Numbered from the stretch's first letter, positions 13,322 to 59,631 are shown. The stretch: DNA of 64,000 bases from an uncultured Methanosarcinales archaeon (GCA_964510085.1 CAZEAB010000002.1:35567-99566); one strand, 5' to 3'. The notes: generated by a model not told the origin, from the letters alone. A program made the numbers and translations.

Positions 13322-13451
13322 TGCCCCCGCCGAGATTTTCGCAACCAAAAGGTTATTTGAACTCGGGACCTCCAGCTTGCCAAGCGTACTACAGCCGTAA
13401 CTGCAGCATCATATAAGACTGGCGCTCTAGACCAGACTGAGCTATGGGGGC
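13322..13451 (-). tRNA. tRNA-Ile (encoded anticodon TAT) with two putative introns, at 37/38 (~34 nt) and in the T-loop at 59/60 (~20 nt)
   Basis: Hand-folded. The acceptor stem is GCCCCCA/CGGGGGC. The D-arm GCTC-AGTCTGGTCTA-GAGC is of Ile/Met type. The anticodon stem CCAGT/GCTGG is only formed after removing 34 nt, leaving loop CTTATAA. The T-arm CCGAG-TTCAAA[20 nt]T-CTCGG is split by an insert. Confidence 0.55.
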
Positions 13452-13586
13452 GTAATTCAACTAATAACGGCTTCTCTTTTTAAATATTCTCTCTAAACAC
13501 CTCTGTAACTCCTATTAAGTGGCACAAAATAGAAACATTTATATATGTCACCCTGTAGTAAATACATTCAGGGCACAAAAACGGCC

Positions 13587-13600
13587 CGTTTATATAAATC
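13587..13600 (+). promoter_or_regulatory. TATA-like box upstream of nnr
   Basis: 'cgtttatataaatc' lies about 12 nt upstream of the ATG at 13612. Confidence 0.4.
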
Positions 13601-13611
13601 AGAGGGATACA

Positions 13612-14490
13612 ATGAACTTAAATCAACTAAAAAAATTAATGGATAGGAAGAAAAATTCCAAAAAAGGAGATAATGGTAGAGCATTAGTTATAGGTGGTTC
13701 TGAAGAATATGTAGGTGCACTTGCATTAGCAGGATTAGGCGCATTACGAGCAAGTTGCGATGTAGTAACCGTAGCATCCTCTGACAAAGTAGCATGGGCA
13801 GTAAATAGATATGCACCAGACTTAATTACACATAAAATTAAAGGACAAAACACATATACTGTAAAAAATGCCAAAGAAATGGTAAAATTTGCAGACAGAT
13901 TCGATGCAACATTAGTTGGATGCGGAATGACTCGAAAAGGAGATAAATTCTCACAATTTTTTGTAAAAAAATTCCAAGGACCTAAAGTAGTAGATGCAGA
14001 TGCATTAAAAGGAATGTCATTTAAAGAATTTGAAAATTGTATTATAACCCCCCACGAAACAGAATTAGAAATGATGTTAGTAAACTCAGGAAAAGAATTC
14101 TTACTTCCAAAATTACGAGTATCAAACGCAAAAGAAAAAGCAGAGATCTTACAAGGAAACTTACGATATTTCTTACATAATAACAACGTATTACTCTTAA
14201 AAGGCGCAACAGACATAATTATATCTCGAAACAGAATCTCGTTTAACAGAACTGGAAATCAAGGAATGACAAAAGCTGGAACAGGCGACGTATTAGCAGG
14301 ATTATGTGTTGGATTCTTAGCAAAAACTCACGATTTATTCAAAAGTGCATGTGCAGCAGCATTCATCAACGGATTAGTTGGCGACGAACTTTTGAAGAAG
14401 AAGAAAGGATACAGTTTCATTGCATCAGACATTGTAGAAGATCTAAAGAAGATTGATACAATGAAGAAGACGAAGAAACGTAAGAAGTAA
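13612..14490 (+). CDS. nnr: ADP-dependent NAD(P)H-hydrate dehydratase (YjeF C-terminal / Nnr2 domain)
   Basis: It has a carbohydrate-kinase-like fold (GRALVIGGSEEYVGALALAG…GTGDVLAGL). The listed ORF starts at 13519, but the promoter box favours the in-frame Met at 13612. Confidence 0.75.
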   Translation: MNLNQLKKLMDRKKNSKKGDNGRALVIGGSEEYVGALALAGLGALRASCDVVTVASSDKVAWAVNRYAPDLITHKIKGQNTYTVKNAKEMVKFADRFDATLVGCGMTRKGDKFSQFFVKKFQGPKVVDADALKGMSFKEFENCIITPHETELEMMLVNSGKEFLLPKLRVSNAKEKAEILQGNLRYFLHNNNVLLLKGATDIIISRNRISFNRTGNQGMTKAGTGDVLAGLCVGFLAKTHDLFKSACAAAFINGLVGDELLKKKKGYSFIASDIVEDLKKIDTMKKTKKRKK

Positions 14491-14522
14491 AATTTTATAT
14501 ACTCTTTTTATTTACCCTTACC

Positions 14523-15365
14523 ATGAAAAAAAAGAGTGAACGTTCTAAATTATTCAATTTCCTAAAAGCAAATCTCGATAATTATGCTTCCAAAGCAGGA
14601 AGAAGAATGGAAGGAACACTCTTTTTCATCAACTTTCTTGCAATAGTAATCTTTGTAATAGAAACACATGACGTTTCGGAAGCGACGCACGCATTTCTTT
14701 TCGCATCAGAATTAGTATTAGTAAGCATCTTCGTACTTGAATATTTAGCAAGAATGTGGGTTGCAGAAAAGAGAGTCAAACATTTCTTTAATGTATATAG
14801 TATCATAGATTTAGTCGCAATCTTACCGATAGCATTAAACTTTATCAACTTAACATTCCTCAGAATCTTCAGAATACTAAGGATATTCAGAATTTTACGG
14901 ATACTGCGGTTCCAACGTGTTTTCAAATCTAAAGATACAATGTTTGGAGCTCTTAGTGATACACAACTAGTTATCATAAGAATTGTATTAACAGTATTCA
15001 CCATTGTCTTTGTATCTGCCAGCTTCATATGGGCGGTGGAGAACAAAGTTAATCCCGGACAGTTTAAAACCCTATGGCATGCATTATATTTTGCCATTGT
15101 AACACTCTCCACAGTAGGATATGGAGATGTAACCCCAGTATCTTCCTGGGGTAGAGGTATTACTGTAACAATGATACTTGCTGGTATCGCATTAATCCCT
15201 TGGCAACTTGGTAAGTTAGTAAAAATCATGTTTGACGCATCGAGGAAAACGTCTATTAAATGCCGTAAATGTGGAATGATAGAACACGACTTAGATGCAT
15301 TATTTTGTAAGATTTGTGGTACGAAGGTTAAACAGCAAGTTAAGAAGAAAGGAATGGTTAGTTAG
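14523..15365 (+). CDS. Voltage-gated K+ channel (KvAP-like) with a C-terminal zinc ribbon
   Basis: It has an S4 segment with Arg every third residue (RIFRILRIFRILRILRF) and the pore-helix / selectivity filter TVGYGD. The C-terminus is CRKCGMIEHDLDALFCKICG. Confidence 0.8.
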   Translation: MKKKSERSKLFNFLKANLDNYASKAGRRMEGTLFFINFLAIVIFVIETHDVSEATHAFLFASELVLVSIFVLEYLARMWVAEKRVKHFFNVYSIIDLVAILPIALNFINLTFLRIFRILRIFRILRILRFQRVFKSKDTMFGALSDTQLVIIRIVLTVFTIVFVSASFIWAVENKVNPGQFKTLWHALYFAIVTLSTVGYGDVTPVSSWGRGITVTMILAGIALIPWQLGKLVKIMFDASRKTSIKCRKCGMIEHDLDALFCKICGTKVKQQVKKKGMVS

Positions 15366-15367
15366 TT

Positions 15368-15898
15368 TTAATCTAAAAGACCAGCTCTCGCTAACTTACC
15401 TCCAATTCCTGCAGCTATATGTGGACTAGAGCCATTCCATTCTTTTGGAATTTCAAGAAATACAACTGTTGCAGCGTATTCTTTTCCATATAAACCCCAT
15501 GGCCAATATACAGCAAATTGACGGATCCCTTCTGTTTCTTTGAAGTAGAGAGGTTGTGTTGGAACAAACCTTAAACTTCCTTGAACTCTATCTAAGATTC
15601 CTTGTAAATAAGAGGGCGTCGGAACTTCTGCTTCAAAAAAATGATCATAATATTCTCTTAATAATGTTTTTACGCTTGTCAAAGCTGGTTCACCTCTCGC
15701 CACGAGTTCTATTAGAGAAGGTTTTACTTGTGGTGCGACATCAACTAAACCATTTCTAATATACGAAGTGCCAGTAGAACTTAACTCTGATTGAATTCTT
15801 CTTGTTAAAGAATAATTTTGTTCATAGTTTTCCATAAATATTGAAATTGATATTACTATAAAAAATTTTGTGAAAATATTCTTATTAGTAATAAACAT
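15368..15898 (-). CDS. Hypothetical protein with an N-terminal hydrophobic segment
   Basis: 176 aa ORF. No motif was recognised. Confidence 0.35.
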   Translation of the reverse strand: MFITNKNIFTKFFIVISISIFMENYEQNYSLTRRIQSELSSTGTSYIRNGLVDVAPQVKPSLIELVARGEPALTSVKTLLREYYDHFFEAEVPTPSYLQGILDRVQGSLRFVPTQPLYFKETEGIRQFAVYWPWGLYGKEYAATVVFLEIPKEWNGSSPHIAAGIGGKLARAGLLD

Positions 15899-15907
15899 AC
15901 AAATAAC

Positions 15908-18025: not shown

Positions 18026-18117
18026 AATAACCTCTTTTTTAATAGTAAGAAATTTTTGTTTATAAAAGTATTGTACATCTTCATAAAACTTAAAAACAAC
18101 CTAACTAAATCTACCTC

Positions 18118-18330
18118 ATGCTATATGAAATATATCAACGACCTTGGTTATTAATACTATTATTATTTACCTTAATCTTATGGGAACTAATATGGAAAGC
18201 AGTTGCATTATGGACTTCTGCAAAGAAACATCAAAAACTATGGTTCATATTTATATTAATATTCAACACCGTTGGAATTTTACCAATAGTATACTTACTC
18301 TTTGGAAGAAAGAAAGACGAAACTACGTAG
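18118..18330 (+). CDS. Small membrane protein, hypothetical
   Basis: 70 aa with two hydrophobic helices. Confidence 0.3.
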   Translation: MLYEIYQRPWLLILLLFTLILWELIWKAVALWTSAKKHQKLWFIFILIFNTVGILPIVYLLFGRKKDETT

Positions 18331-19399
18331 CTTCTTCAATTTCAATTTTACCTTTTCGTAACGTCAAAGCAAATTCTTTATCATCATGAAATTTAGCAAT
18401 TTTATTTGCAATTACCGGTAAGATAATTCGATCTCCCCTAAACGTTAAGGATGAGATTATTTTCTGAGATTCATTACCATCTAAACTAATTTCATTCATT
18501 ACTTCCTTTGCTTTCTCTTTCTTCTTTCCGTGAACTATTTCTTCTGTTTTACGAAAAAAGAATTTAGCAATTTCATCAGCAATATTAATAGTAGAAACAG
18601 ACTGAACTCCTTGTAATCCTGGAGAGATATTCGCTTCAATTACTAAAGGACCACGAGGACTTTCTAGAATATCAACACCACATACATCTGCTCCAAGAGC
18701 TTTTGCAGTCTTAACAGCAATCTTAGAAGCTTCGTGACTTAACAAAATAGCTTTTGGTTCTCCGCCAGAATGAGTATTTGCCCTCTTCTCACCTTTCTGA
18801 GCAACACGTTTCATTGACGCAACAACTTTGTCTCCAACAACAATGGCACGGATATCTTCACCATTTGTCTCAATATACTCTTGAATAATAAATGGTTGAT
18901 TTAACGCACCCAAAGCATCTAGTAATGACGCAGCAGAACTTTGTGACTCCGCAAACATAACACCCTTTCCTTGCGTTCCTTCAGGAAACTTCATCACAAT
19001 AGGATAATGAACTCTTTTCAATAATACTTTAGCTTCTTCAATAGTTGAAGAAATATATGTTCTTGGCATAGGAATATTTTGTTGTTCCAACGCAAGATGT
19101 GTTAATAATTTATTATGAACTGTTGTAAAAGAACTTGCAGGAAGAGGCATATACGGAACCTTCCCTTCAAGTAAAGCAGAGATAGATCGTAACAAGTTAG
19201 CAAATCTAAATGAACCCTTTACATATATGCAATCATAATGTTCTAATAATTTTCCTTCATAGAAAATACCACTTTCTTTTCCTAAACGAACTTCTATATT
19301 TCGCAACTGAATCATATCAACTTCATCAAAATGCTTCTTCATTGATTCAACAACCATTTCTGAACTAGTACTACCTAAAGAAATAACTGCCCCTTTCAT
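18323..19399 (-). CDS. RimK-like ATP-grasp ligase (alpha-L-glutamate ligase family) with a ~70 aa C-terminal extension
   Basis: It has an ATP-grasp fold with conserved Lys/Glu/Asp positions (…PIVMKFPEGTQGKGV…EYIE…GEDIRAIVVGDKVV…GVDI…VIEANISPG). It is co-oriented with and overlaps the retropepsin-like partner. Confidence 0.75.
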   Translation of the reverse strand: MKGAVISLGSTSSEMVVESMKKHFDEVDMIQLRNIEVRLGKESGIFYEGKLLEHYDCIYVKGSFRFANLLRSISALLEGKVPYMPLPASSFTTVHNKLLTHLALEQQNIPMPRTYISSTIEEAKVLLKRVHYPIVMKFPEGTQGKGVMFAESQSSAASLLDALGALNQPFIIQEYIETNGEDIRAIVVGDKVVASMKRVAQKGEKRANTHSGGEPKAILLSHEASKIAVKTAKALGADVCGVDILESPRGPLVIEANISPGLQGVQSVSTINIADEIAKFFFRKTEEIVHGKKKEKAKEVMNEISLDGNESQKIISSLTFRGDRIILPVIANKIAKFHDDKEFALTLRKGKIEIEEAT

Positions 19400-19863: not shown

Positions 19864-19870
19864 TTATTGC

Positions 19871-19905
19871 CTCAGGGGGAGGGCCCCTACGGGGATGGGG
19901 CAGTG
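19871..19905. other. GC-rich hairpin element in the divergent promoter region upstream of tRNA-Glu
   Basis: 'ctcagggggagggcccctacggggatggggcag' is a strong GC island in AT-rich DNA. It folds GCCCC-tac-GGGG and partly resembles the tRNA-Glu 5' end (gcccctgtgg). Confidence 0.3.
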
Positions 19906-19989
19906 CAATGTATCTATATGAAAAGTGAACCCGACTCTGCTCACAAATTAAGAAACATTTTTAAAGAGATTACCTTTTGGATTGAGTAA

Positions 19990-20108
19990 GCCCCTGTGGT
20001 GTAGTCCGGACAAATTCAAACACTGGATTCACAGGGTTTGTCTTTTGGGATAAACTATCATTCTGCCCTTTCGAGGCAGCGACCCGGGTTCAAATCCCGG
20101 CGGGGGCG
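19990..20108 (+). tRNA. tRNA-Glu (anticodon TTC) with a ~44 nt non-canonical intron in the D-arm (after ~position 21)
   Basis: Hand-folded. The acceptor stem is GCCCCTG/CGGGGGC. The D-arm GTGT-AGTCCGGACAA…TCAT matches the archaeal Glu type only after removing 44 nt. The anticodon arm is CTGCC-CTTTCGA-GGCAG and the T-arm is CCGGG-TTCAAAT-CCCGG. Confidence 0.6.
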
Positions 20109-20154
20109 CTTTTCTTTCCACAACTATTATATACATTAATACATTCTAACAAGC

Positions 20155-20877: not shown

Positions 20878-20888
20878 TACAAATCTCC

Positions 20889-21833
20889 TTATAAACTTTC
20901 CTTAAACTCCTCAAACAATGTCTTAATCTCATCAATAGATTTAACCTTCAACAACTTCCCACGTAATTCTTTACTACCCTTACACCCTTTACTAAAATTC
21001 ATTGCTTGCATTCTAATATTCGCCAATTTTATTTTATAGTTTTGAGCATACTTCAAATACTTAAAAAACGTAGTCAAACGACCTTTATCACTAACCTTCC
21101 TATAAGTTCCCTCAGATAAAAACTCATTAACCTGCGCAAACAGAAACGGATTCTTTGCAGCAGCCCTTCCAATCATCACATAATCACACCCAGTTTCAGA
21201 GATCATACGAGCAGCATCTTCTGGCGTTTCTATGTCACCATTACCACATACTGCAATTTCAACAGATTCCTTCAACTTTGTAATCAACGACCAATCTGAC
21301 TTCCCGGAATACCCTTGCTTAACAGTTCTTGGATGTAATGTAATCATCGCCAAACCTTCTTCCTCAGCAATTTTACCAATCTCTAAATACTTATCCGTTT
21401 TGTTAATACCTGCTCTTATCTTAACAGTAACTGGAACAGTAGCATGCTTCACTAACACCTTAAAAATCTCTCGAGTCAACTCTGGCTCTTGTAATAAAGC
21501 AGAACAAGCCATTGACTTTGTAATATGTGGAGCTGGACATCCCATGTTATAATCAATAATATCAAAATGTTTTGTAACTATCTTCACAGCTTCTTCTAAC
21601 TTTTCCAAATTAGAACCAAACAACTGTATAGAAATGGGCCTTTCCTTTTCAGAGAACTGAACAAACTCCATAATCTCATTTGCTTTAGCAGAAACTGCAT
21701 GTACGTTAACAAATTCAGTTACTACCAATCCCGCTCCTAATTCTTTACATATTAGACGCAGAGCTGGGTCTGATACACCTGCCATTGGTGCAAAGAATGC
21801 TTTACTTGTAAAATCTGGAAGTTTTTTCTTCAT
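20889..21833 (-). CDS. dus: tRNA-dihydrouridine synthase
   Basis: It has a TIM-barrel flavoenzyme fold (FAPMAGVSD…NMGCP…GNGDI…) typical of Dus. Confidence 0.85.
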   Translation of the reverse strand: MKKKLPDFTSKAFFAPMAGVSDPALRLICKELGAGLVVTEFVNVHAVSAKANEIMEFVQFSEKERPISIQLFGSNLEKLEEAVKIVTKHFDIIDYNMGCPAPHITKSMACSALLQEPELTREIFKVLVKHATVPVTVKIRAGINKTDKYLEIGKIAEEEGLAMITLHPRTVKQGYSGKSDWSLITKLKESVEIAVCGNGDIETPEDAARMISETGCDYVMIGRAAAKNPFLFAQVNEFLSEGTYRKVSDKGRLTTFFKYLKYAQNYKIKLANIRMQAMNFSKGCKGSKELRGKLLKVKSIDEIKTLFEEFKESL

Positions 21834-22847: not shown

Positions 22848-22868
22848 AAAAATAGTTAATTAACCAAT

Positions 22869-30323: not shown

Positions 30324-30334
30324 GGAGGAATATT

Positions 30335-36940: not shown

Positions 36941-37012
36941 AAAGTGTGGACGGCAGACAAGTTAAAATCAAAGATTCACAAGCCTGCCTTACCTAATCTA
37001 AGAAATAAAATA

Positions 37013-37145
37013 TGTGGACGGCAGGGTTTGAACCTGCGTAGGCACTAAGCCACTGGGTCCTAAGCATAGCCAGGAAACTCAAGTGAGAATCCTTCCAGCC
37101 CGTTTATATGGCTCCCAGACGGAAGTGACCACTCCGGCACGTCCA
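37013..37145 (-). tRNA. tRNA-Leu (anticodon TAG) with a ~49 nt intron at a non-canonical site in the 5' side of the anticodon stem (30/31–31/32)
   Basis: Hand-folded. The acceptor stem is GTGGACG/CGTCCAC. The anticodon arm CTGGG-CTTAGGA-CCCAG forms only after removing 49 nt. The long variable arm (TGGCTTAGTGCCTAC) is of Leu type and the T-arm is GCAGG-TTCAAAC-CCTGC. Confidence 0.5.
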
Positions 37146-37287
37146 CGTGAAACATGGACTGACGGTTCCGAAAATCTAAGATTTTAGTTACCGGCACGTC
37201 CACGTAAAGAGAATAAAGCAGTGACCTCTTTAAAAACATTTCTACATTTTCATAAACTTTAAAAGAGGACCATACACAAACACCAAT

Positions 37288-45730: not shown

Positions 45731-45809
45731 TTGAGTAAAATTAGCATGATTTATTATAAATATTCTTGAAGGAAATAATCACTTCAGAAAGAAATACTTT
45801 TGTATGTTA

Positions 45810-45867
45810 GGGGCCCTGTCGTAGACGAGCCAGGTACTTCAAGGAAGTACGATCCTGGCGTGCCCCA
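45810..45867 (+). other. tRNA-like GC-rich structured element (acceptor-like stem plus extended hairpin)
   Basis: GGGGCCC…GGGGCAC terminal pairing encloses CCAGG-[GTACTTC-AAG-GAAGTAC]-GAT-CCTGG. The 5' end resembles the adjacent tRNA 5' end (GGGCCTGT). It is too short to be a tRNA. Confidence 0.3.
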
Positions 45868-45908
45868 ATAATACAAAGTAATATGTTTCTGAAGAAAGTT
45901 AAAAAATG

Positions 45909-46048
45909 CGGGCCTGCAGGGACAGTCGTTCCCTAGGGAAATTCGAACCCCGATGAGCAGGTTTCATCTTGTATGAAAACCGAAGCCTACCATTTGATAT
46001 CCTTGCAGCATGTACTGACAGGGATGCTATCCATTACATCACAGGCCC
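45909..46048 (-). tRNA. Candidate tRNA-Arg (anticodon TCG, tentative) with three putative introns (~25/26, 37/38 and 59/60)
   Basis: Hand-folded. The acceptor stem is GGGCCTG/CAGGCCC. The D-arm is ATGT-AATGGATA-GCAT. The anticodon arm GTAGG-CTTCGG[17 nt]A-CCTGC and T-arm CGGGG-TTCGAA[19 nt]T-CCCTG form only after removing inserts of ~32, 17 and 19 nt. Confidence 0.4.
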
Positions 46049-46092
46049 ACAAACAACTAAGAACTTAATTGATTTAAAAAGCTTTCTTATAG

Positions 46093-47046
46093 TTACTCTA
46101 ATAAACGTCTCACAACCATCGTAGCATAACTTCCCTTTCCAAGAACAAAACGTAATTTCACAATATCATCACCCAACTTCTCAACAACTAAATCTTTAAC
46201 ATCAACAAACACATCTCTTAATTCTCCCTCCATACTTAATTCTGGGATTTGTTTAATTATAAAATCTCGATGTGTAATGTTCTCTTTTTTCATAATCTCT
46301 CTTATAATCTCTCTAACGTCTTCAAAAACTAAACTAGAATCAAATCCAACTAATGGAACTTTCTCCCCTACTTTCTCTTTTACAAAAACTAACTTCCCTA
46401 ACTTATACTCAACCTTTTTAACAACATCAAAAGAAGATAAATACCTACTAACACACTCATTCCACAAATAACTTTGATACGCATGCACATAAAACCTCAA
46501 CATTCGCAATGGAATCTTTCTCAAAGCACTAATATAATCATTTTTCACAACAGATAACTCTAACAACTCACACGCTCCCTTAAAATCTTTCTTCACAATC
46601 GCTTTCCCAATCTTCTCATTCTGACCACCAAATCTCTGCTCATCATAATAATTTACAACAAAATCCACTTCTTCAACTTCTCCAGAATAATCTCTCACAA
46701 CAATCTCAAACTTATTACCCTCAAGATCTCCCAACGAAATTGGAATATCTCCAAACCCTTTTAACTTTACAGAAACATTCTCAATATCCAACTTTTCAAT
46801 CTTATCTTTACCAACACTAAAAATGGACATCATCTGCTCTGTGACAGCATGTTTATCTTTTGTACCAGCAAACCCAATTTTCTTTTCGGGAACTCCTACC
46901 TGTCGAGAAATCTGCTTCACAACATCTAACGTATTTCTATTCTTTTTCCGTACAAGAACATATGCATACCTTCCAGACGTAGCAAACTTCACAGTACTAA
47001 TTTCTTTCACAATAAAATCTTCTGGTTTTTGCTTAAGCACATACAT
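46093..47046 (-). CDS. truD: tRNA pseudouridine synthase TruD/Pus7 family
   Basis: It has the N-terminal F-x-V-x-E-I block (EDFIVKEI) and the catalytic GTKDKHAVTEQ motif. The probable start is the Met at 47046 (MYVLKQ). The ORF track extends to 47106. Confidence 0.7.
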   Translation of the reverse strand: MYVLKQKPEDFIVKEISTVKFATSGRYAYVLVRKKNRNTLDVVKQISRQVGVPEKKIGFAGTKDKHAVTEQMMSIFSVGKDKIEKLDIENVSVKLKGFGDIPISLGDLEGNKFEIVVRDYSGEVEEVDFVVNYYDEQRFGGQNEKIGKAIVKKDFKGACELLELSVVKNDYISALRKIPLRMLRFYVHAYQSYLWNECVSRYLSSFDVVKKVEYKLGKLVFVKEKVGEKVPLVGFDSSLVFEDVREIIREIMKKENITHRDFIIKQIPELSMEGELRDVFVDVKDLVVEKLGDDIVKLRFVLGKGSYATMVVRRLLE

Positions 47047-47077
47047 ATTAATCAAAAAACATAGATACAATAAAAAA

Positions 47078-47530
47078 CTATTCCAAAAGATACTCAAAAT
47101 ACACACACTTCACATTCTTAGGATCATCAAAGAACACAACACTCTTACAACTTCTATAAAATTCAAAACCACGACCTTCAGTTTGAAACACTCTGTTTTC
47201 ATTTATTTCAACAGCATTAAATTCCTTCTCTTGACTAATTCCAATCACAAACCCTTTTTTCCCAAACCAAACATGAAACTGAAATGGAAATCCACAATAA
47301 TGGAAAACATTATTACCAGCTTCATTCAAAAAATACGCAACTTCATCACTTTCCTTATAGTGCAACCAATTGTGGTGATCAAAAGTAGTGTTATACCTTA
47401 GATTCAACAAATCAGGTATTGTCCATTTATGTTTATTATACCCCTCTTGATCTTGTATTCGAATAACTTTATACCTATCTAACCCAATTTTCTCAAAACA
47501 AGTACTCAATTTCCTCCCAAAATCAATCAT
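47078..47530 (-). CDS. Hypothetical protein
   Basis: 150 aa ORF with no motif. Confidence 0.3.
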   Translation of the reverse strand: MIDFGRKLSTCFEKIGLDRYKVIRIQDQEGYNKHKWTIPDLLNLRYNTTFDHHNWLHYKESDEVAYFLNEAGNNVFHYCGFPFQFHVWFGKKGFVIGISQEKEFNAVEINENRVFQTEGRGFEFYRSCKSVVFFDDPKNVKCVYFEYLLE

Positions 47531-52548: not shown

Positions 52549-53070
52549 ATGAAAATAACTGACATATCTGAATTAGAACAACAATCACAAGATCGAAAAA
52601 TACCAATAATTGGTCCTAAGAAAGGCGAATGGCTTCTTTCAGTTGTAAAGAAACATCAACCACATAAAATTCTAGAACTCGGAACAGCTAATGGGTATTC
52701 TGGAATAATACTTGGATCAGAAGGAGGAGAACTGATTACATTAGAATTAAACCACAAAATAGCAGAAGAAGCACAAACAAACTTTACAAAACATAACACG
52801 GACGCTATAATCATCGTTGGAGATGCTGTAGAAAATACACACAAACTCATAGAAAGATTTGACCTCATTTTCATAGATTTTGCAAAAAAGAAGTACATAG
52901 ACGTTCTGGAAAAGTGTATAGAACTTCTCAACACAGGTGGCATACTTATAGCAGATAATATTTCTATGGAAGGCTGTCAAGATTTCAAAGAAGCTGTTCT
53001 TCACCATCCAGAATTTGATTCAGAAATAATTGATGTTGGGGATGGATTGAGTTATAGTATTAAGGTGTGA
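52549..53070 (+). CDS. Class I SAM-dependent O-methyltransferase (CCoAOMT-like)
   Basis: It has motif I (ILELGTANGYSGIIL) and the overall ~170 aa O-methyltransferase family layout. Confidence 0.65.
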   Translation: MKITDISELEQQSQDRKIPIIGPKKGEWLLSVVKKHQPHKILELGTANGYSGIILGSEGGELITLELNHKIAEEAQTNFTKHNTDAIIIVGDAVENTHKLIERFDLIFIDFAKKKYIDVLEKCIELLNTGGILIADNISMEGCQDFKEAVLHHPEFDSEIIDVGDGLSYSIKV

Positions 53071-54367
53071 ATCGTTCCATCGTCCTTGGAAATGGAATTA
53101 CATCCTTAATACTTTCTAAACCGCAAATCCATTTAATAACTCTCTCAACTCCAAGACCATATCCTGAATGTGGTACGCTTCCATACTTACGTAAATCAAT
53201 ATACCATTCATATGTTTTAGGATCTTCTCCTTCCTTCTTTAATTCCTCAACAAGTCTTTTAGAATCTGTTTCTCTCTCACTTCCACCAACAATTTCACCA
53301 AAACTTTCTGGAGCTAGCATATCAAAACACTTTGCAACAGGACCTGGAACATTTTCTTGCTTTCCCTCTCGTTCAGGTTTATAGAACGCCATAACTTCTT
53401 TAGGATAATCAATTACAACAACAGGAGTATCAAACAACTCCATCAATTTCTCCTCCTCAATTGTCCGTAAATCTTTTCCCCATTCTACATCCATATCACA
53501 CTTCTCTTTCAACAATCGAAGAGCTTCAGTATACGTAATAGTTGGATAATCTTTTTCACTACAAATCTTCAACTTCTCAATATCTCTACCAAGCATCTCC
53601 AACTCACTTTGATGTTTTTCAAGAACTTTCTGAACAATAAACTTAACTTCTGCTTTCGCAACTTCGGTAACATCTTCTAAATGCATCCACGCAGCTTCCA
53701 TTTCCGCCATCCAAAATTCTGCTAAATGACGTGATGTTTTACTTTTCTCAGAACGAAACGTAGGTGAAACATTATAGATTTTTTCTAACGAAAACACAGC
53801 AGACTCTGCATATAATTGCCATGATTGTGCAAGATACATGATGGAATCAAAATACTTCACTTCAAATAACGTAGAACCACCTTCACATGCATTCGGCTGA
53901 AAGATTGGTGCATGAAACTCATAATAACCCCTCTCGCGGAAAAAATCATGAATCGCACCAAGAACAGTACTTCGAATTTTGAGAATGGCTTGCATCTTTC
54001 TACTTCGTAACCACAAGTGCCTATTGTCTGCAAGGAACTCAATACTTTGATCTTTAGTAATAGGATATGTGTCACTCTTACCAACAATTGAAAAATTACT
54101 TACCTGAATTTCATACCCAGTAGGAGCTCGAGGATCTTCTTTAATCTCTCCTTCAATTTCAATAGAAGATTCTACTTGTAAAGCATCAATTTCATCCCAT
54201 CTATCTTCAAAAGCATCCTTCTTAATTACACATTGAATGGTGTTAGAACTATCTCGTAACACAACGAACTTCATCTTATTACTTCCACGTTCTCGATGAA
54301 CCCATCCTCTAATAGAAACAGTTCCTGTTCCTAAGTTCATAGCCTCTTGAATTGAAATATATGTCAT
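53060..54367 (-). CDS. asnS: Asparaginyl-tRNA synthetase (archaeal/eukaryal-type class IIb)
   Basis: It closely matches the AsnRS signature blocks (SPTFRSEKSKTSRHLAEFWMAEMEAAWM; EWYIDLRKYGSVPHSGYGLGVERV). Confidence 0.75.
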   Translation of the reverse strand: MTYISIQEAMNLGTGTVSIRGWVHRERGSNKMKFVVLRDSSNTIQCVIKKDAFEDRWDEIDALQVESSIEIEGEIKEDPRAPTGYEIQVSNFSIVGKSDTYPITKDQSIEFLADNRHLWLRSRKMQAILKIRSTVLGAIHDFFRERGYYEFHAPIFQPNACEGGSTLFEVKYFDSIMYLAQSWQLYAESAVFSLEKIYNVSPTFRSEKSKTSRHLAEFWMAEMEAAWMHLEDVTEVAKAEVKFIVQKVLEKHQSELEMLGRDIEKLKICSEKDYPTITYTEALRLLKEKCDMDVEWGKDLRTIEEEKLMELFDTPVVVIDYPKEVMAFYKPEREGKQENVPGPVAKCFDMLAPESFGEIVGGSERETDSKRLVEELKKEGEDPKTYEWYIDLRKYGSVPHSGYGLGVERVIKWICGLESIKDVIPFPRTMERFTP

Positions 54368-54399
54368 AGATAGAAAAATATTCAGTCACTATAAAAAAC

Positions 54400-55785
54400 T
54401 TACCCCAAAACTTCTTTCATAATCTTATTAACAACAGCCGGATCTGCTTTACCTTGCGTAATACGCATAACCTGACCAACTAGAAAATTAAAACTCTTCT
54501 CACTTCCACTTTTATAATCTTCAACAGCTTTCTCATTAGACTTAACAACATCCTCACATACAAAACGAATCTCCGAATCATCACCAACCAACATCAAACC
54601 TTCTCGAATAACATACTCTTTTGGAGAAAAGGGTGCATCGATCAACTTCTCCATCAATTTTTGACCAGTCCTTTCAGAAATATCTTTTCCTTCAACTAAT
54701 CGTAATATCTCCATAACATGTTGTTCATCTAACTCAACTTCTTTCAAACTCTTTTTATTGTAATTTAACACCCGCATCAACTCATGACGTAACCACTTCG
54801 CAGCAATTTTAGGATCAATTTCCGCAGCTACTCTCTCAAACAATTCAGCAAGTTCTAATTCCATAGACAAAACTTCAGCATCTATCGTGTCAATTTTATG
54901 TTCTTCAACATATCGTACAGAGCGAACATGCGCTAATTCTGGAACATCCTTACGAATAGATTCAATCTTATCATTACTAACACTAAATACAGGAAGATCT
55001 GGCTCAATAATATACCCATAATCTGCTTCATTCTCTTTTAAACGTAACATAGTTGTCTTTCTTCCAGTCCACGCTCTTGTATGAACTTTTTTCTCTCCAG
55101 GTTTCTTCAACGCAATTTTCTGACGAACTAACTCATAATTCATAGCTCTCTCCGCATCTTTAAAACTGCTAACATTCTTAATCTCTACACGGGGATGTCC
55201 TTCAATATTTACATTTAAATCAGATTTTACAACACCAGTTCGTTCATCAAAAATCTTAAGATACTTTACAATTCTAACAAGCTCATTCAAAAATTCACGA
55301 GCTTCTGCAGGAGAATTCATACAAGGTGTTGTTACAATCTCTACTAATGGAACACCACTTCTGTTATAATCAATCAACACACTATCTGATTCATCAATAG
55401 CTCCATCATGAATTAATGCTGCAGGATCTTCTTCAATATGAATACGTTCAATTTCAACAACTTTTCCACTCTTTAATTTAACACTTCCATTTCTTCCAAG
55501 TGGAATTTCAAATTGTGTAATCTGATAATTCTTACTCATATCGGGATAGAAATACGTCTTTCTTGAGAAAGCAACTTCATTCTCAATTTTGCATCCAAGT
55601 GCTATACATAACTTCAAAGCATAATCTAACACCTTTTTGTTAAACATTGGTTTACTCCCAGGATGTCCTAAACAAATTTCACATACCTGTGTATTTGGTT
55701 TCCCCTCACTAGTAGGACAACCACAGAAAGCTTTCGTATCAGTATTCAATTGAATGTGCGTTTCCAAACCAACCAATGTTACCAT
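54400..55785 (-). CDS. gatB: Asp/Glu-tRNA(Asn/Gln) amidotransferase subunit B
   Basis: It has the GatB N-terminus (VGLETHIQLNTDTKAFCGC…) and a length of 461 aa, not the longer GatE. Confidence 0.9.
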   Translation of the reverse strand: MVTLVGLETHIQLNTDTKAFCGCPTSEGKPNTQVCEICLGHPGSKPMFNKKVLDYALKLCIALGCKIENEVAFSRKTYFYPDMSKNYQITQFEIPLGRNGSVKLKSGKVVEIERIHIEEDPAALIHDGAIDESDSVLIDYNRSGVPLVEIVTTPCMNSPAEAREFLNELVRIVKYLKIFDERTGVVKSDLNVNIEGHPRVEIKNVSSFKDAERAMNYELVRQKIALKKPGEKKVHTRAWTGRKTTMLRLKENEADYGYIIEPDLPVFSVSNDKIESIRKDVPELAHVRSVRYVEEHKIDTIDAEVLSMELELAELFERVAAEIDPKIAAKWLRHELMRVLNYNKKSLKEVELDEQHVMEILRLVEGKDISERTGQKLMEKLIDAPFSPKEYVIREGLMLVGDDSEIRFVCEDVVKSNEKAVEDYKSGSEKSFNFLVGQVMRITQGKADPAVVNKIMKEVLG

Positions 55786-55804
55786 TTTTTATCTATTTCC
55801 CATT

Positions 55805-57070
55805 CTATTTTTTCTCATAATAATCTGCAACTTGTATAATTCTCTTTTCATTCCAATGATCTCCAATAAGTAACATCCCAATTGGCATTCCATCCTTCTT
55901 CCCACAAGGAATACTAATGTGTGGCAATCCAGCTAAGTTAGGGCCTACTGTTAGAATATCCATCATATATTGTTGCATAGGAGTCATCTTCTCTACTTCA
56001 TCAAACTTAGGTGCTATAACTGGCATAGATGGAGAGATTAACACGTCATACTTCTCAAACAACTTCTTATACTCATCAATAATTAATTGACGAACCTTCA
56101 TGGCTTTAATGTAATACGCATCTCTATACCCCACCATTCTTGCAAATGTACCAAGAATAATTCGTCTTTTAGTTTCTTTATTAAAATTCTCTGAACGAAC
56201 TGAAGAAAAGTAATCATTAAAACTAACTCCAGAAGGTTCCCCCTCAACACCATACCGTAAACCACAATATTTTGCTAAATTAGTAGAAGCTTCCGTTAAC
56301 GCAATAAGATAATACGTAGACACACCATACTTCATAGTAATTGGAAGACTAACTTCCTCAACCTCTCCCAACATACCAGCAGCATGTCGAACAGCTTCAG
56401 CAATCTCTGGATCAACACCCTCTCCAAATGCTTCCGCTATTACTCCTATTTTCAAACCACTAATATCTCTTCCAATATCCTCACTAAACCCCTTCTCTTT
56501 CTCAACACACGTAGCATCTTTTCCATCAGCACCAGAAATAATCTCTAACACCTCAGCACATTTCTTAACGGTTTTAGCAATAGGACCAATCTTATCTAAT
56601 GAATTTGCATAACTTAATAACCCATATCTACTCACTCTTCCATACGTTGGAGTTAAACCAATAACTCCACAAAATGCTGCAGGACATGCAATACTTCCAC
56701 CAGTTGATTGACCTAATGCAATATGGTTCTCATCAAGTAAAGCAACAGCACCAGCCGCACCACCACTAGAACCACCACATACCCTCTCTTTATCTAACGG
56801 ATTCTTTGGAACTTCTTTATCCAAACCAACATTCACAGAGAAACTACCAAACCCAAATGCATCCATTGCAGTCTTCCCAATACACACACCACCTGCTTTC
56901 TTTAACCTCTCAACAACAGTCGCATCAAATCGTGGTATATAATTAAACAAAATCTGTGAACCTGCAGTTGTGGGCATATCTTCTGTACAGATAGAATCTT
57001 TCACACTAAATTTAAATTTGCCAGTAGAAGAATCAACACGATGATTAAATAAATGAAATTCATCCATCAT
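55805..57070 (-). CDS. gatA: Glu/Asp-tRNA amidotransferase subunit A (amidase)
   Basis: It has the amidase signature GGSSGG(A)AAAV and Ser-cisSer-Lys triad context. Confidence 0.9.
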   Translation of the reverse strand: MMDEFHLFNHRVDSSTGKFKFSVKDSICTEDMPTTAGSQILFNYIPRFDATVVERLKKAGGVCIGKTAMDAFGFGSFSVNVGLDKEVPKNPLDKERVCGGSSGGAAGAVALLDENHIALGQSTGGSIACPAAFCGVIGLTPTYGRVSRYGLLSYANSLDKIGPIAKTVKKCAEVLEIISGADGKDATCVEKEKGFSEDIGRDISGLKIGVIAEAFGEGVDPEIAEAVRHAAGMLGEVEEVSLPITMKYGVSTYYLIALTEASTNLAKYCGLRYGVEGEPSGVSFNDYFSSVRSENFNKETKRRIILGTFARMVGYRDAYYIKAMKVRQLIIDEYKKLFEKYDVLISPSMPVIAPKFDEVEKMTPMQQYMMDILTVGPNLAGLPHISIPCGKKDGMPIGMLLIGDHWNEKRIIQVADYYEKK

Positions 57071-57399
57071 ACTGCTTTTGGTCCTTTGAAATAACCTTCC
57101 TCCTTATTCTTTACAGCAGAATCAAACACTTCTTCTTCAGAAAAACAATCCTCTACTTTATCTTCTCTAAAAACATTACGAACAGTAATTGGATGGAATG
57201 CAGGTTCAACATGATCAGTATTAACTTCTTCTAGTTTAGAGAAAACTTCCATAACTTCTTTTAATTGTGGTAAAAATTCAGAAACCTCTTCCTCACTAAG
57301 TTTAAGACGAGAATTTGCTGCAATCTGCAACAACAACTCTTTAGTCAGTTCCATCCTAATCCTCGTAGATAAAAACACCCAACTCATGGAGTTGATCAT
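57067..57399 (-). CDS. gatC: Asp/Glu-tRNA amidotransferase subunit C
   Basis: It is about 95–110 aa and sits between aspS and gatA. The likely true start is the internal Met at 57354 (MELTKELL). Confidence 0.7.
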   Translation of the reverse strand: MINSMSWVFLSTRIRMELTKELLLQIAANSRLKLSEEEVSEFLPQLKEVMEVFSKLEEVNTDHVEPAFHPITVRNVFREDKVEDCFSEEEVFDSAVKNKEEGYFKGPKAV

Positions 57400-58735
57400 C
57401 TTTTACAACACTTGGAGAGTCCGACATTAAATCTCGTGCTTCCTGATTCTTTGGAAATGCAATAACTTCTCTAATACTATCCCCACCAGCCATAATCATA
57501 GCCCATCTATCAAGACCAAACGCAATACCTCCGTGAGGTGGTGCAAACTGAAGAGCCTTTAACAGAGAACCAAATTTCTCCTCAGCTTCTCTTTCACCAA
57601 GACCAAGAGCATCAAACACTTGCTTCTGAATATCTGCATCATGAATTCGAATACTTCCCCCACCAATCTCATGACCATTTAATACCAAATCATATGCTCG
57701 ACTTTTTACTTTTGCTTTATCATTATGGATATATTTCATATCCTCTAAAAAAGGACTTGTAAAAGGATGATGAACACTTACAAATCTATTATCAGTTTCA
57801 CTAAATTCAAACATAGGGAAATCTGTAACCCATGTAAACGCATATTCTTTATCTTGCTCTTTACGCAAATCTGGATTATCCATCCCATACTTCTTCATAC
57901 TCTCATCATACGTAATTCGTGGAAAAGGAATTTGTACATCAACATCAAGAACTTCCTTAAACACATACTTAACCATTAGTTCCATTAAAGCATACATATC
58001 TTCTTCATCAATAAACGACATTTCTAAATCTAGTTGAGTAAATTCTGGTTGTCTGTCTGCACGTAAATCTTCATCTCGGAAACAACGTGCTATTTGGAAA
58101 TATCTGTCAAAACCAGATACCATTAACAACTGTTTAAACGTTTGTGGACTTTGTGGTAACGCAAAGAACTTTCCAGGAAAAGTTCTACTTGGAACAAGGT
58201 AGTCTCGTGCTCCTTCTGGAGTAGATTTTGCAAGAATTGGCGTTTCAACTTCCATAAAATCTTCCTTATCAAAAAAATCTCGAATAGCTTTAATCATTTT
58301 ATGTCGAATCATAAGATTCTTCTGCATTTTCTCTCTTCGTAAATCTAAATAACGATACTTCATTCTTGTAGATTCAGAAGATTCAATATGTTCATCTAAA
58401 TCGATAGGCAATTCAGGAACTTCTTTCAACATAGTGATTTTCTTCGCACTTAATTCAATCTCTCCAGTACCAGCGTCTTTAATTTGATTCTCAGGACGAG
58501 TTTTAACCTCTCCCTCAACTTGGATAACATCTTCCTTATTCACATTTCGAAAATCGTGAGCTAAATCCTTATTCAGAAATACTTGAGTCTTTCCATATCT
58601 ATCCCTGATATCAATAAACCCAATCTTACTGCTAATTCTCGCAGAGTCAACCCATCCAACAAGTGTAACTGTGTCACCTGCATCTTTCTTAGATAATCCA
58701 CCGCATGTATGCGTTCGAAATGCTGTTTTTGTCAT
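57356..58735 (-). CDS. aspS: Aspartyl-tRNA synthetase, bacterial-type but lacking the GAD insertion domain (likely non-discriminating)
   Basis: It has bacterial AspRS motif 2 (FQIARCFRDEDLRADRQPEFTQLD) and motif 3 (GGIAFGLDR). It is only 459 aa. The region equivalent to the E. coli GAD domain is replaced by a short linker. It heads the gatCAB operon. Confidence 0.85.
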   Translation of the reverse strand: MTKTAFRTHTCGGLSKKDAGDTVTLVGWVDSARISSKIGFIDIRDRYGKTQVFLNKDLAHDFRNVNKEDVIQVEGEVKTRPENQIKDAGTGEIELSAKKITMLKEVPELPIDLDEHIESSESTRMKYRYLDLRREKMQKNLMIRHKMIKAIRDFFDKEDFMEVETPILAKSTPEGARDYLVPSRTFPGKFFALPQSPQTFKQLLMVSGFDRYFQIARCFRDEDLRADRQPEFTQLDLEMSFIDEEDMYALMELMVKYVFKEVLDVDVQIPFPRITYDESMKKYGMDNPDLRKEQDKEYAFTWVTDFPMFEFSETDNRFVSVHHPFTSPFLEDMKYIHNDKAKVKSRAYDLVLNGHEIGGGSIRIHDADIQKQVFDALGLGEREAEEKFGSLLKALQFAPPHGGIAFGLDRWAMIMAGGDSIREVIAFPKNQEARDLMSDSPSVVKDDQLHELGVFIYED

Positions 58736-58758
58736 TTTATATCTCTTAATGTAAAAAG

Positions 58759-58896
58759 CGGCTCTGACCAGACTTTCGAAAAAGTGAACTTTTTCTAAAT
58801 CATCAAGTACACTTGATACTCGAACTGGTGACCTCGAGGTCGCTGTTGGTTTCCACCACTAACAGCCCCGCGCTCTACCTACTAAGCTACAGAGCC
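58759..58896 (-). tRNA. tRNA-Asn (anticodon GTT) with two putative introns (37/38, ~19 nt; T-loop 59/60, ~46 nt)
   Basis: Hand-folded. The acceptor stem is GGCTCTG/CAGAGCC. The D-arm is GCTT-AGTAGGTA-GAGC. The anticodon arm is CGGGG-CTGTTA[19 nt]A-CCTCG. The T-arm is ACCAG-TTCGAG[46 nt]T-CTGGT. Confidence 0.55.
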
Positions 58897-58976
58897 GCAA
58901 TAGAAGAGCAGAAGATTTAATCATTATAAAGGTTTCCTCAAATTTAGGCGTATCTCGAAATCTTTTCGGACGGAAC

Positions 58977-59237
58977 TTATAGGTGTCTTTTGTAAATATT
59001 TCTTCTATGACTAATAATTCTTACAGCAATTACTTTTTCTTCTTCAATAATATCAACAATTGCTCTGTAATCCCCAGAACGAATTTTATATCCTGGATCT
59101 CCTGAAAGGCTCTCAAGAAAATGTTTTGGATTAGCTTTAGTAGAGTCGACTTTCTTAACAATCCGCGTAGCAATATCTTTAGGTAGTTTACGTAACTCTT
59201 GTAAAGCTTTAGAACGCCACTTAATAACGTAACTCAT
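58977..59237 (-). CDS. RelE/ParE-family type II toxin
   Basis: 86 aa, basic, with RelE-like conserved C-terminal Arg/Tyr (…IISHRRNIYKRHL). It is overlapped by 1 nt by the upstream small ORF. Confidence 0.65.
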   Translation of the reverse strand: MSYVIKWRSKALQELRKLPKDIATRIVKKVDSTKANPKHFLESLSGDPGYKIRSGDYRAIVDIIEEEKVIAVRIISHRRNIYKRHL

Positions 59238-59428
59238 TATGCAAACTCTTTAAGAACTTCTTCATGATCAACATAGTCAGATAATGGTTCTTTTCTAGCA
59301 CTTTCTAAGGCTTTCTTTGCACTTTCGCTTAATTCAAAATCTTCTGTAAGAATATGTGTTATTTTGTTCAATTGAATTTTAACTTCATTAATATCTTTTT
59401 CAAGTTTTTTAAGTGTTACAGTTTCCAT
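59237..59428 (-). CDS. Type II antitoxin (partner of the RelE/ParE toxin)
   Basis: 63 aa acidic helical protein immediately upstream of the toxin and translationally coupled to it. Confidence 0.5.
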   Translation of the reverse strand: METVTLKKLEKDINEVKIQLNKITHILTEDFELSESAKKALESARKEPLSDYVDHEEVLKEFA

Positions 59429-59506
59429 AATTTACAAATATTATACAGAATATATAAATTTATCCAACAAAACCCTTAAAAACAACCTTTCAAAACAATG
59501 AACCAA

Positions 59507-59631
59507 GGACCTGTGGCCCAGTGGATAAGGCGATTCCCTCCTAATACTCAAGTAGAGAGGAATAGATCGGGGGTTCGAAACAGCAGACTGCATTCTCTAT
59601 GCTGTATGCTGCGCAATTCCTCCCAGGTCCG
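59507..59631 (+). tRNA. tRNA-Arg (anticodon CCT) with two putative introns (37/38, ~14 nt; T-loop 59/60, ~38 nt)
   Basis: Hand-folded. The acceptor stem is GGACCTG/CAGGTCC. The anticodon arm is ATTCC-CTCCTA[14 nt]A-GGAAT. The T-arm is GGGGG-TTCGAA[38 nt]T-CCTCC. Confidence 0.55.

Follow-up and report, generated by a model that had tools for sequence, protein, structure and literature searches.

A 64,000-nt stretch of DNA catalogued under an uncultured Methanosarcinales archaeon (GCA_964510085.1 CAZEAB010000002.1:35567-99566; hereafter the window, with positions counted from its first letter) raises the question of whether six regions that resemble broken tRNAs are functional tRNA genes interrupted by introns. 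An earlier note on this DNA had proposed that every tRNA gene in the window contains introns, up to three per gene. Plain ARAGORN identified no contiguous tRNA in the 64 kb and none reached the Rfam gathering score; with permissive settings, Rfam returned no more than two partial tRNA matches in the window, both sub-threshold (20041-20108 and 13367-13451). When introns in the anticodon loop were allowed, ARAGORN found two of the six genes and mis-modelled both: tRNA-Glu was forced to 'Arg-tct' and tRNA-Leu was given a single 49-nt intron. Both models were rejected. All six regions nevertheless contain recognisable tRNA pieces, namely matching 7-bp acceptor halves, GTTCRA T-loops and the D-arm consensus, and after in silico removal of the inserts ARAGORN calls an intron-less cloverleaf for each of them (Ile-UAU, Glu-UUC, Leu-UAG, Arg-UCG, Asn-GUU and Arg-CCU). 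The spliced sequences have the correct anticodon loops, and their D-, anticodon and T-loops are intact in all six cases, which bears out the proposal. The six loci are very probably functional tRNA genes, each with one to three short (14-46 nt) archaeal-type introns, twelve altogether. Three direct observations carry this reading: the gene models themselves, the geometry and covariation of the bulge-helix-bulge (BHB) motifs at the junctions, and the presence/absence polymorphism of the introns among related genomes.

The set of six is well delimited. An insert-tolerant anchor scan, for which a GC-rich acceptor stem, U8 and a TTCRA loop enclosed by a T stem were obligatory, returned exactly these genes, against an average of 0.95 matches in simulated windows, and a GC-island scan of the window revealed no additional tRNA. 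The exons have a GC content of 60.7 % and the introns of 41.7 %. CCA is not encoded in any of the six genes, and the exons of each are colinear within 119-140 nt, an arrangement that differs from split or circularly permuted tRNA genes. Including their introns, tRNA-Ile and tRNA-Glu are unchanged in two further independent assemblies made from other samples with other pipelines; tRNA-Ile is also identical in a third, which brings the total to four independent assemblies. The contig carries a seventh tRNA gene, 5.3 kb upstream of the window: a second and different tRNA-Asn(GUU) (L034, 3831-3919) with a 15-nt intron at the canonical site between nucleotides 37 and 38 (37/38) that ARAGORN disguises as a variable arm. 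Over about 73 kb, all seven tRNA genes are thus interrupted and none is intact.

Each junction pair was scored for a BHB motif whose central helix, H, pairs exon positions s-6 to s-3 with intron positions e-5 to e-2. H is accompanied by two 3-nt bulges, each cut after its second nucleotide; an outer helix, h, joins both exons, and an inner helix, h', lies inside the intron. The junctions are given below in this register, with a caret at each cut. The twelve introns fall at 37/38 (four), at 59/60 in the T-loop (four), in the D-loop (two), at 23/24 (one) and at 30/31 (one).

The gene for tRNA-Ile(UAU) occupies 13322..13451 on the minus strand (precursor 130 nt, mature 76 nt; ARAGORN tRNA-Ile(tat)). 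It has a 34-nt intron at the canonical 37/38 site (13378..13411, minus strand; CTTA TA^T...TTGG CA^A; H 3/4, h 5, h' 1) and a 20-nt intron at T-loop site 59/60 (13336..13355, minus strand; TTCA AA^T...CGAA AA^T; H 3/4, h 5 formed by the T stem, h' 0), the register of the latter being the best among 81 tested. tRNA-Glu(UUC), at 19990..20108 on the plus strand (precursor 119 nt, mature 75 nt; ARAGORN tRNA-Glu(ttc)), carries a single 44-nt intron in the D-loop after G19 (20010..20053, plus strand; GTCC GG^A...GGAT AA^A; H 4/4, h 0, h' 4, hence of the HBh' type). Placements from 19/20 to 20a/20b leave the mature sequence unchanged, and the BHB motif favours 19/20, close to the D-arm position of about 21/22 that had been put forward for this gene. 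Another splice, GGACAA^...^ATCATT, leaves one A too many, and the BHB-supported register was preferred.

The gene for tRNA-Leu(UAG), a class II tRNA with a long variable arm, lies at 37013..37146 on the minus strand (precursor 134 nt, mature 84 nt; ARAGORN tRNA-Leu(tag)). It contains a 21-nt D-loop intron at 20a/20b (37106..37126, minus strand; GTGG TC^A...CCAT AT^A; H 4/4, h' 6) and a 29-nt intron in the 5' strand of the anticodon stem at 30/31 (37066..37094, minus strand; GGCT GG^A...GGCT AT^G; H 4/4, h' 4). All six loci lie where the earlier note had placed them, save that the 5' end of tRNA-Leu is at 37146 rather than 37145. tRNA-Arg(UCG), at 45909..46048 on the minus strand (precursor 140 nt, mature 72 nt; ARAGORN tRNA-Arg(tcg)), is the gene with three introns. 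The first, of 32 nt, interrupts the 3' strand of the D stem at 23/24 (45994..46025, minus strand; GATA GC^A...TATC AA^A) and forms a strict motif (H 4/4, h 2, h' 3). Any placement of it from 23/24 to 25/26, near the previously suggested site of about 25/26, yields the same mature sequence. It is followed by a 17-nt intron at the canonical 37/38 site (45963..45979, minus strand; CTTC GG^T...GATG AA^A; H 3/4, h 6, h' 2) and a 19-nt intron at T-loop site 59/60 (45923..45941, minus strand; TTCG AA^T...CGAC TG^T; H 3/4, h 5, h' 5).

tRNA-Asn(GUU) extends over 58759..58896 on the minus strand (precursor 138 nt, mature 73 nt; ARAGORN tRNA-Asn(gtt)). Its 19-nt canonical 37/38 intron (58841..58859, minus strand; CTGT TA^G...ACAG CG^A) forms a strict hBHBh' motif with H 4/4, h 5 and h' 4, and its second intron, of 46 nt, lies in the T-loop at 59/60 (58773..58818, minus strand; TTCG AG^T...CGAA AG^T; H 4/4, h 5, h' 1). 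tRNA-Arg(CCU), at 59507..59631 on the plus strand (precursor 125 nt, mature 73 nt; ARAGORN tRNA-Arg(cct)), uses the same two sites, with a 14-nt intron at canonical 37/38 (59544..59557, plus strand; CTCC TA^A...GTAG AG^A; H 3/4, h 5, h' 1) and a 38-nt intron at T-loop 59/60 (59580..59617, plus strand; TTCG AA^A...CGCA AT^T; H 3/4, h 5, h' 5), the register of which is unambiguous. The shared use of 59/60 by the Ile, Asn, Arg-CCU and Arg-UCG genes, as well as use of the canonical site, had been noticed before, and both hold in the final models, where the canonical site is occupied in the same four genes.

The BHB-like motifs expected at the proposed junctions are found at all of them. At least three of the four H positions pair at every one of the 12 junction pairs, which corresponds to a strict or relaxed BHB, and the final models have 42 of 48 H positions paired where about 18 are expected (binomial p about 1e-12). 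Three intron registers were themselves picked by BHB; the fairer figure, for the remaining nine introns, is 30 of 36. In the first hand parse, the register given by tRNA numbering was the best BHB register among 81 neighbours for nine of 11 introns. The strict hBHBh' form occurs twice (Asn 37/38 and Arg-UCG 23/24). The outer helix is missing from three HBh' motifs, those of the Glu D-loop intron and of the two Leu introns, and the inner helix from a single hBH motif, that of Asn 59/60; the other six have a single mismatch in H. A filter for strict hBHBh' alone (H 4, h and h' at least 2) was discarded as too noisy, since it gave one to six matches per gene, mostly by chance.

Covariation was assessed formally on 16 distinct junctions from the window and its relatives, all with a register fixed independently at 37/38 or 59/60. 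Paired cells amount to 93.8 % in this set, compared with 56.6 % after shuffling (none of 500 shuffles reaches the observed value) and 40-54 % in slid registers. The exon-intron helix is paired at 89 %, with double-sided changes at three of its four pairs. For introns at 59/60, the partner of T54-R57 is a tetramer resembling CGAA or TGAA at the intron's 3' end. The arm reproduces the geometry of the canonical anticodon arm, in which a 5-bp stem closes a loop of 7 nt and the intron follows loop nucleotide six.

Related genomes contain the same genes with other complements of introns. In a syntenic locus whose aspartyl-tRNA synthetase (AspRS) is 73 % identical to that of the window (L006), the tRNA-Asn gene at 9911-9984 has no introns and aligns colinearly with the mature sequence predicted here, the two introns of the window gene appearing as clean gaps; the anticodon and T stems show compensatory changes. 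The tRNA-Arg(CCU) of the same locus (7407-7544) has introns at all three sites, D-loop, 37/38 and 59/60. A second syntenic locus, with a permease 63 % identical (L005), encodes a tRNA-Glu (7853-8013) whose exons are near-identical to those of the window gene. Its D-loop site holds a different, 21-nt intron, with GGAC in place of GGAT in the 3' strand of H, and it has additional introns at 37/38 and 59/60, where the window gene is contiguous. The tRNA-Ile(UAU) of L005 (14272-14444) carries three introns, at 29/30, 37/38 and 59/60, and differs from the window gene by compensatory changes in the acceptor, anticodon and T stems, including two compensatory base pairs in the anticodon stem. H is fully paired (4/4) in each of the six introns of L005.

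For tRNA-Leu, the relevant relative is a locus with an 86 % identical lysyl-tRNA synthetase (LysRS; L039, gene at 7145-7287). Its D-loop is contiguous, GAGTGGTCAAACGGG, precisely at the predicted junction. At 30/31 it has an intron of the same length, 29 nt, with conserved ends, a diverged middle and compensatory changes in h', and an extra 30-nt intron occupies 37/38, where the window gene is contiguous. The closest comparison is provided by L036, with an AspRS 90 % identical in nucleotides and 97 % in amino acids. Its tRNA-Asn retains the 37/38 intron (18 of 19 positions identical), whereas an unrelated intron of 35 nt stands at 59/60 in place of the 46-nt one, and a C to T change within it compensates for G57A in the exon (TTCG/CGAA to TTCA/TGAA). 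The L036 tRNA-Arg(CCU) (6603-6711) keeps the 37/38 intron with two substitutions, has a 22-nt D-loop intron and lacks one at 59/60, the reverse of the window gene.

Introns are thus present or absent at exactly the predicted junctions, between conserved exons, in five tRNAs (Asn, Glu, Ile, Arg-CCU and Leu). Given these differences among close relatives, intron content must turn over much faster than the neighbouring genes, and the replacement of a T-loop intron together with the swap from 59/60 to the D-loop at 97 % AspRS identity indicates that this turnover is very rapid. The compensatory stem changes between orthologues mean in turn that selection acts on the mature tRNA. The introns behave as fast-evolving, near-neutral elements that are gained, lost and replaced between close genomes, and they may possibly be mobile. 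Similar cores occur in introns of different tRNAs: TTCC(C/T)TAGGGAA in the Arg-UCG 59/60 intron (45923-45941) and in the 29/30 intron of L005 tRNA-Ile, TTGATG..TTAGAA.AAAG..TCACTT in the window intron at 58773-58818 and the L005 Ile 59/60 intron, and AACCTTTT in the window intron at 13336-13355 and the L005 Glu 59/60 intron. These resemblances are marginal (best Bonferroni-corrected p about 0.03) and are a hint of transposition. No tRNA was found near 14 further AspRS loci of related metagenome-assembled genomes (MAGs; two extra hits were bacterial and were excluded), and the synteny is therefore short-range.

Several points weigh against the view that the six loci are functional genes with spliced introns. 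Splicing itself, and the enzymes that would perform it, are deduced from sequence. A search of the 64 kb with an M. jannaschii EndA probe and Pfam scans of about 40 open reading frames revealed neither EndA nor RtcB, and none of the EndA proteins of the lineage could be tied to the host genome through shared samples. The acceptor stem of tRNA-Ile has an A7·C66 mismatch. Several intron registers slide without altering the mature sequence, so that the exact site depends on the BHB model; just 2 of 12 motifs are of the strict type, six have a mismatch in the central helix and in four h' is 0 or 1. As a result of these mismatches and short inner helices, some junction models may be one nucleotide off or may need alternative local folds.

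Decay is one way to account for such features: the loci would be tRNA pseudogenes with random insertions, and functional intron-less copies would reside elsewhere in the genome. Standard tools miss the loci, the tRNA-Ile acceptor stem is mismatched, and partial, decayed tRNA-Leu sequences on either side of the Leu gene show that tRNA debris is present locally. This is hardly credible for genes whose exons are conserved, with compensatory stem changes among orthologues, and whose promoter and terminator signals are intact. The inserts are moreover confined to positions at which a BHB forms, its helix covaries, relatives have different introns at the same sites, and an intact tRNA gene is missing from the seven in 73 kb. 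A fabrication of the insertions by assembly or binning, through chimeric contigs or mis-joined reads, would have to be considered for any metagenome assembly such as this one; its probability is negligible here, as the tRNA-Ile and tRNA-Glu genes recur with identical introns in assemblies from other samples and pipelines and orthologous genes in related genomes exhibit the same phenomenon.

If the loci are genuine genes, the inserts might still be removed or tolerated without EndA and a BHB, through group I or II self-splicing, retention as expansion segments, or trimming by other nucleases. The window has no EndA gene and many of the motifs are relaxed rather than strict, as would be anticipated in that case, yet such a route is very improbable. 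At 14-46 nt the inserts are far too short for group I or II introns, and no Rfam group I/II match was obtained even at E up to 10. They split the universally conserved T-loop and the anticodon loop, so that retention would destroy tRNA function; the geometry of a 4-bp helix with 3-nt bulges is statistically supported and covaries, and the lineage encodes EndA. A narrower disagreement concerns tRNA-Leu, for which the earlier note, like ARAGORN with introns, had a single insert, of 49 nt at about 31/32. Its product is still called as tRNA-Leu, but no BHB can be drawn for it, and the D-arm it leaves is poor: 10:25 is mismatched and nucleotide 26 is missing. The two-intron model has H 4/4 at both sites and a canonical D-loop, AGUGGUCAAA, and the contiguous D-loop of L039 is what it predicts. 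This comparison settles the matter in favour of two introns (21 nt in the D-loop, 29 nt at 30/31); the single insert is refuted and we attach next to no weight to it.

Ordinary archaeal protein-dependent tRNA splicing, at unusually many sites, is therefore the best-supported account of the six genes. Transcription of each would start from a TATA-box promoter of its own and stop at a T-run. The BHB would be built in the precursor by the six exon nucleotides that directly precede an intron together with the final six of that intron, four of each pairing as H, with a 3-nt bulge after each strand that is cut behind its second nucleotide. For introns at 37/38 and 59/60 the anticodon stem or the T stem would act as the outer helix, and for those in the D-loop and at 30/31 the central helix and a helix internal to the intron would suffice (HBh'). 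EndA would cleave both bulges and an RtcB-type ligase would join the exons, restoring the D-, anticodon and T-loops. In some relatives, the stem that the 37/38 site uses as its outer helix is split by an intron at 29/30 or 30/31, which implies an ordered removal. Ordered intron removal has been described for other archaea (PMC8450103).

The EndA probe, 91 % identical to Methanocaldococcus EndA, retrieves many single-unit EndA proteins of 170-211 aa from Nanoarchaeota/Woesearchaeota MAGs, with invariant columns for the catalytic Tyr, His and Lys. Several of these proteins from the DPANN superphylum (P0215, P0216, P0209, P0186 and P0200) have a Lys-rich N-terminal extension of 25-35 aa that is absent from the M. 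jannaschii enzyme and could be an RNA-binding tail relevant to relaxed substrates. The additional length of some of the proteins lies in this tail, and no internal 'L3' insertion, which the literature describes as C-terminal, is evident in an alignment of ten DPANN EndA sequences. Archaeal EndA recognises the BHB motif wherever it is located, not the tRNA body, and since the 59/60 arm copies the canonical geometry, position alone does not imply a relaxed enzyme. The endonuclease of relaxed specificity that had been proposed from the recurrent use of 59/60 does not follow from that observation; the shapes of the motifs point in the same direction, in that the predominance of hBH, HBh' and mismatched-H motifs (2 of 12 strict) argues for a broad endonuclease specificity.

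The host itself has to be placed before these introns can be compared with those of other archaea. The window has a GC content of 34 % and contains housekeeping genes for class I LysRS, AspRS, GatA/GatB, SRP54, eIF2-gamma and ribosomal proteins L1 and L10, along with two ribonucleotide reductases, TruD and Dus. Its permease-methyltransferase fusion has a 100 % identical counterpart on a 133 kb Joint Genome Institute metagenome contig that recurs in other samples, and the named relatives of this fusion, of AspRS and of LysRS come from Candidatus Woesearchaeota, Nanoarchaeota and Nanoarchaeia MAGs. By these relatives, the host is a DPANN archaeon (Woesearchaeota or GTDB Nanoarchaeota; NCBI kingdom Nanobdellati). 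The best protein relatives, the related loci and the GC content all place it outside the Thermoproteales.

Non-canonical BHB introns at 20/21, 22/23, 25/26, 29/30, 30/31, 45/46, 53/54, 56/57 and 59/60, as well as tRNAs with three introns, are documented in Crenarchaeota and Nanoarchaeota (PMC4090602), and all intron positions used here are among the documented BHB-intron sites (PMC4090602). Archaea average 0.21 introns per tRNA gene and Thermoproteales 0.84, with a record of 1.54 in Pyrobaculum calidifontis, where 46 genes have 71 introns (PMC8450103); the tRNA-Pro of P. islandicum has introns at 25/26, 37/38 and 56/57 (PMC4090602; PMC8450103; PMC4033280). The window resembles the Thermoproteales in having up to three BHB or relaxed introns per gene, in the use of D-arm, anticodon-stem and T-loop (59/60) sites, and in the gain and loss of introns between relatives. 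It differs in its host, a low-GC (34 %) DPANN archaeon rather than a crenarchaeote, and in the endonuclease: the EndA matches from this lineage are single alpha units, and the enzyme of the Thermoproteales is an (alpha-beta)2 heterotetramer with the crenarchaeal loop. Population-level disruption of tRNA genes in Ca. Caldiarchaeum and intron transposition in Thermoproteales have also been described (Fujishima 2010, as related in PMC4033280). The presence/absence differences between very close genomes and the hints of related introns in different tRNAs are reminiscent of these cases, although the relatedness of introns between genes is only marginal here, unlike in the transposition of the Thermoproteales.

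The nearest precedent lies within DPANN. According to the available part of the survey by Kaneta et al. (2018, Nucleic Acids Research), which includes Ca. Woesearchaeota archaeon RBG_13_36_6 and is built on tRNAscan-SE 2.0 predictions but states no figures for individual genomes, tRNA gene disruption is markedly increased in DPANN, incomplete tRNA sets point to undetected disrupted genes, and the alpha4-type EndA of DPANN carries an 'L3' loop for which broad specificity is proposed (PMC5829648). The statement of the earlier note that such introns are known mainly from Thermoproteales is therefore out of date for this host (PMC5829648). Our genes belong to the same superphylum and probably the same phylum, and are undetected disrupted genes of the kind suspected there; relative to that portion of the survey, they add hand-resolved genes, comparative proof at the level of junctions, and fast turnover among close relatives (PMC5829648). 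Multiple-intron tRNAs are also listed for ARMAN-1 and -2 (PMC4033280). These ultrasmall DPANN archaea (Ca. Micrarchaeum) share non-canonical and multiple tRNA introns and the relaxed bulge-helix-loop (BHL) and hBH motifs (PMC4033280); they belong to another phylum, and the three-unit epsilon2 EndA that cleaves their introns (PMC3239211, PMC3488258) is about twice as long as the 170-211 aa Nanoarchaeota/Woesearchaeota proteins. The L005 orthologue of tRNA-Ile(UAU) has a further parallel in a red alga, with the same tRNA species, a distribution of introns over three arms and BHB-dependent recognition. The alga is a eukaryote with a eukaryotic endonuclease, and the resemblance is hence convergent.

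The phenomenon is therefore already known in kind and, in outline, in this lineage. What goes beyond prior knowledge is, tentatively, the high density and the turnover between genomes separated by a very short evolutionary distance. With 12 introns in six genes, the window reaches 2.0 per gene, and the contig has 13 in seven, a sample far too small for the claim of a record. It is possible, if rather doubtful, that the lineage has the most intron-dense tRNA gene set known, with about two introns per gene and all genes interrupted, active intron mobility at 90 % nucleotide identity and, by the look of its relatives, a simple alpha-type EndA without known specificity loops. If so, it would constitute a natural system for watching tRNA intron gain under way and for testing whether a plain alpha4 enzyme cuts relaxed BHB motifs. 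The rapid turnover bears on how tRNA introns spread and persist, and the junction-resolved T-loop, D-loop and anticodon-stem introns, with their natural presence/absence controls, represent a substrate set for the specificity of DPANN EndA. Because standard annotation misses all the tRNA genes here, DPANN MAGs of this kind look tRNA-poor and 'incomplete' though they are not. The main value of the locus thus lies in a warning for DPANN genome annotation and in a well-controlled set for the study of EndA specificity and intron turnover.

The flanks of the genes display transcription signals. A TATA-like box that starts between -30 and -34 from the mature 5' end precedes five of the six genes, compared with a background of 9.7 %, and a T-run lies within 1-3 nt downstream of all six. 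The putative promoters are TTTAAAA at 13478..13484 (minus strand; -33 to -27 from the 5' end of tRNA-Ile), TTTTTAAA at 19958..19965 (plus strand; about -32 to -25 from tRNA-Glu), TTTTAAA at 46073..46079 (minus strand; -31 to -25 from tRNA-Arg(UCG)), TTTATAA at 58924..58930 (minus strand; -34 to -28 from tRNA-Asn) and TTAAAA at 59476..59481 (plus strand; -31 to -26 from tRNA-Arg(CCU)). With this near-uniform spacing, transcription starts would fall at or within a few nucleotides of +1. Nanoarchaeum equitans transcribes its tRNAs leaderless and independently of RNase P, and the spacing hints at a comparable, near-leaderless tRNA transcription here. No RNase P RNA was seen in the window.

The tRNA-Leu gene is arranged differently. 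Its ends are duplicated outside the gene, as GTGGACGTGCCGG 57 nt upstream (37191-37203) and CTGCCGTCCACA 68 nt downstream (36945-36956), and both flanks hold an anticodon-loop-like CTTAGAT. The upstream copy folds into a stable hairpin resembling the acceptor stem (dG -22.3, z -4.4). The only TATA-like box of tRNA-Leu, TTTAAA at 37229..37234 (minus strand; a putative promoter), is located at -31 from this outer copy of the 5' end (37203) and not from the gene itself, which implies a structured leader of 57 nt. The 86 % relative L039 likewise has an upstream hairpin (GTGGACG; 7290-7345), which is accompanied by a TATA box of its own. The flanking copies may be the relic of a decayed gene copy or a functional leader. 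The outer 5' copy was also considered as the true exon, with a 57-nt intron; there are 14 equivalent registers, only one of which gives a 4-bp, palindromic H, without flanking helices, and the model was rejected.

tRNA-Ile has the anticodon UAU, which is conserved in the L005 relative (13322-13451; L005 14272-14444). The usual solution for AUA codons in archaea is a CAU anticodon (agmatidine), and a tRNA-Ile with the UAU anticodon also exists in Nanoarchaeum equitans and Korarchaeum.

Structured or GC-rich elements lie near two other tRNA genes. One of them, UUGGGGCACGCCAGG...CCUGGCUCGUCUACGACAGGGCCCCUAAC (~45808-45868, minus-strand sense), is GC-rich and structured and follows tRNA-Arg(UCG) at a distance of about 40 nt; its dG is -28.7 (z -3.2 versus shuffles). 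Rfam has no match to this element, which could represent either a small RNA or a structure of the terminator type. An intergenic GC-rich stretch upstream of tRNA-Glu, GCCUCAGGGGGAGGGCCCCUACGGGGAUGGGGCAGUGC (19866-19906, plus strand), folds no better than its shuffles (z +0.8).

Some of the neighbouring genes are themselves related to tRNA. A gene for a TruD-family tRNA pseudouridine synthase (46093-47106, minus strand) is immediately upstream of tRNA-Arg(UCG), and a dihydrouridine synthase (Dus) gene (20889-21833) is near tRNA-Glu. tRNA-Asn(GUU) directly adjoins a cluster that comprises AspRS, a putative GatC, GatA, GatB and a second AsnRS/AspRS-like gene (53060-58896), and the position of the AspRS-Gat cluster beside it suggests that Asn-tRNA may be made by transamidation. 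Between tRNA-Asn and tRNA-Arg(CCU) stand an AhpC gene and a toxin-antitoxin-like module of two genes (58977-59428, minus strand; 86 aa and 63 aa, one-base overlap). The spacing of the two tRNA genes is only about 115 nt in L036, and they therefore flank a variable insertion spot. Further along, at 61684-61757, a 74-nt island shares 98.6 % identity with L036, compared with about 83 % for the rest of the region; undetected by Rfam, the island contains C-box-like AUGACGA and D-box CUGA motifs and is a candidate C/D-box small RNA.

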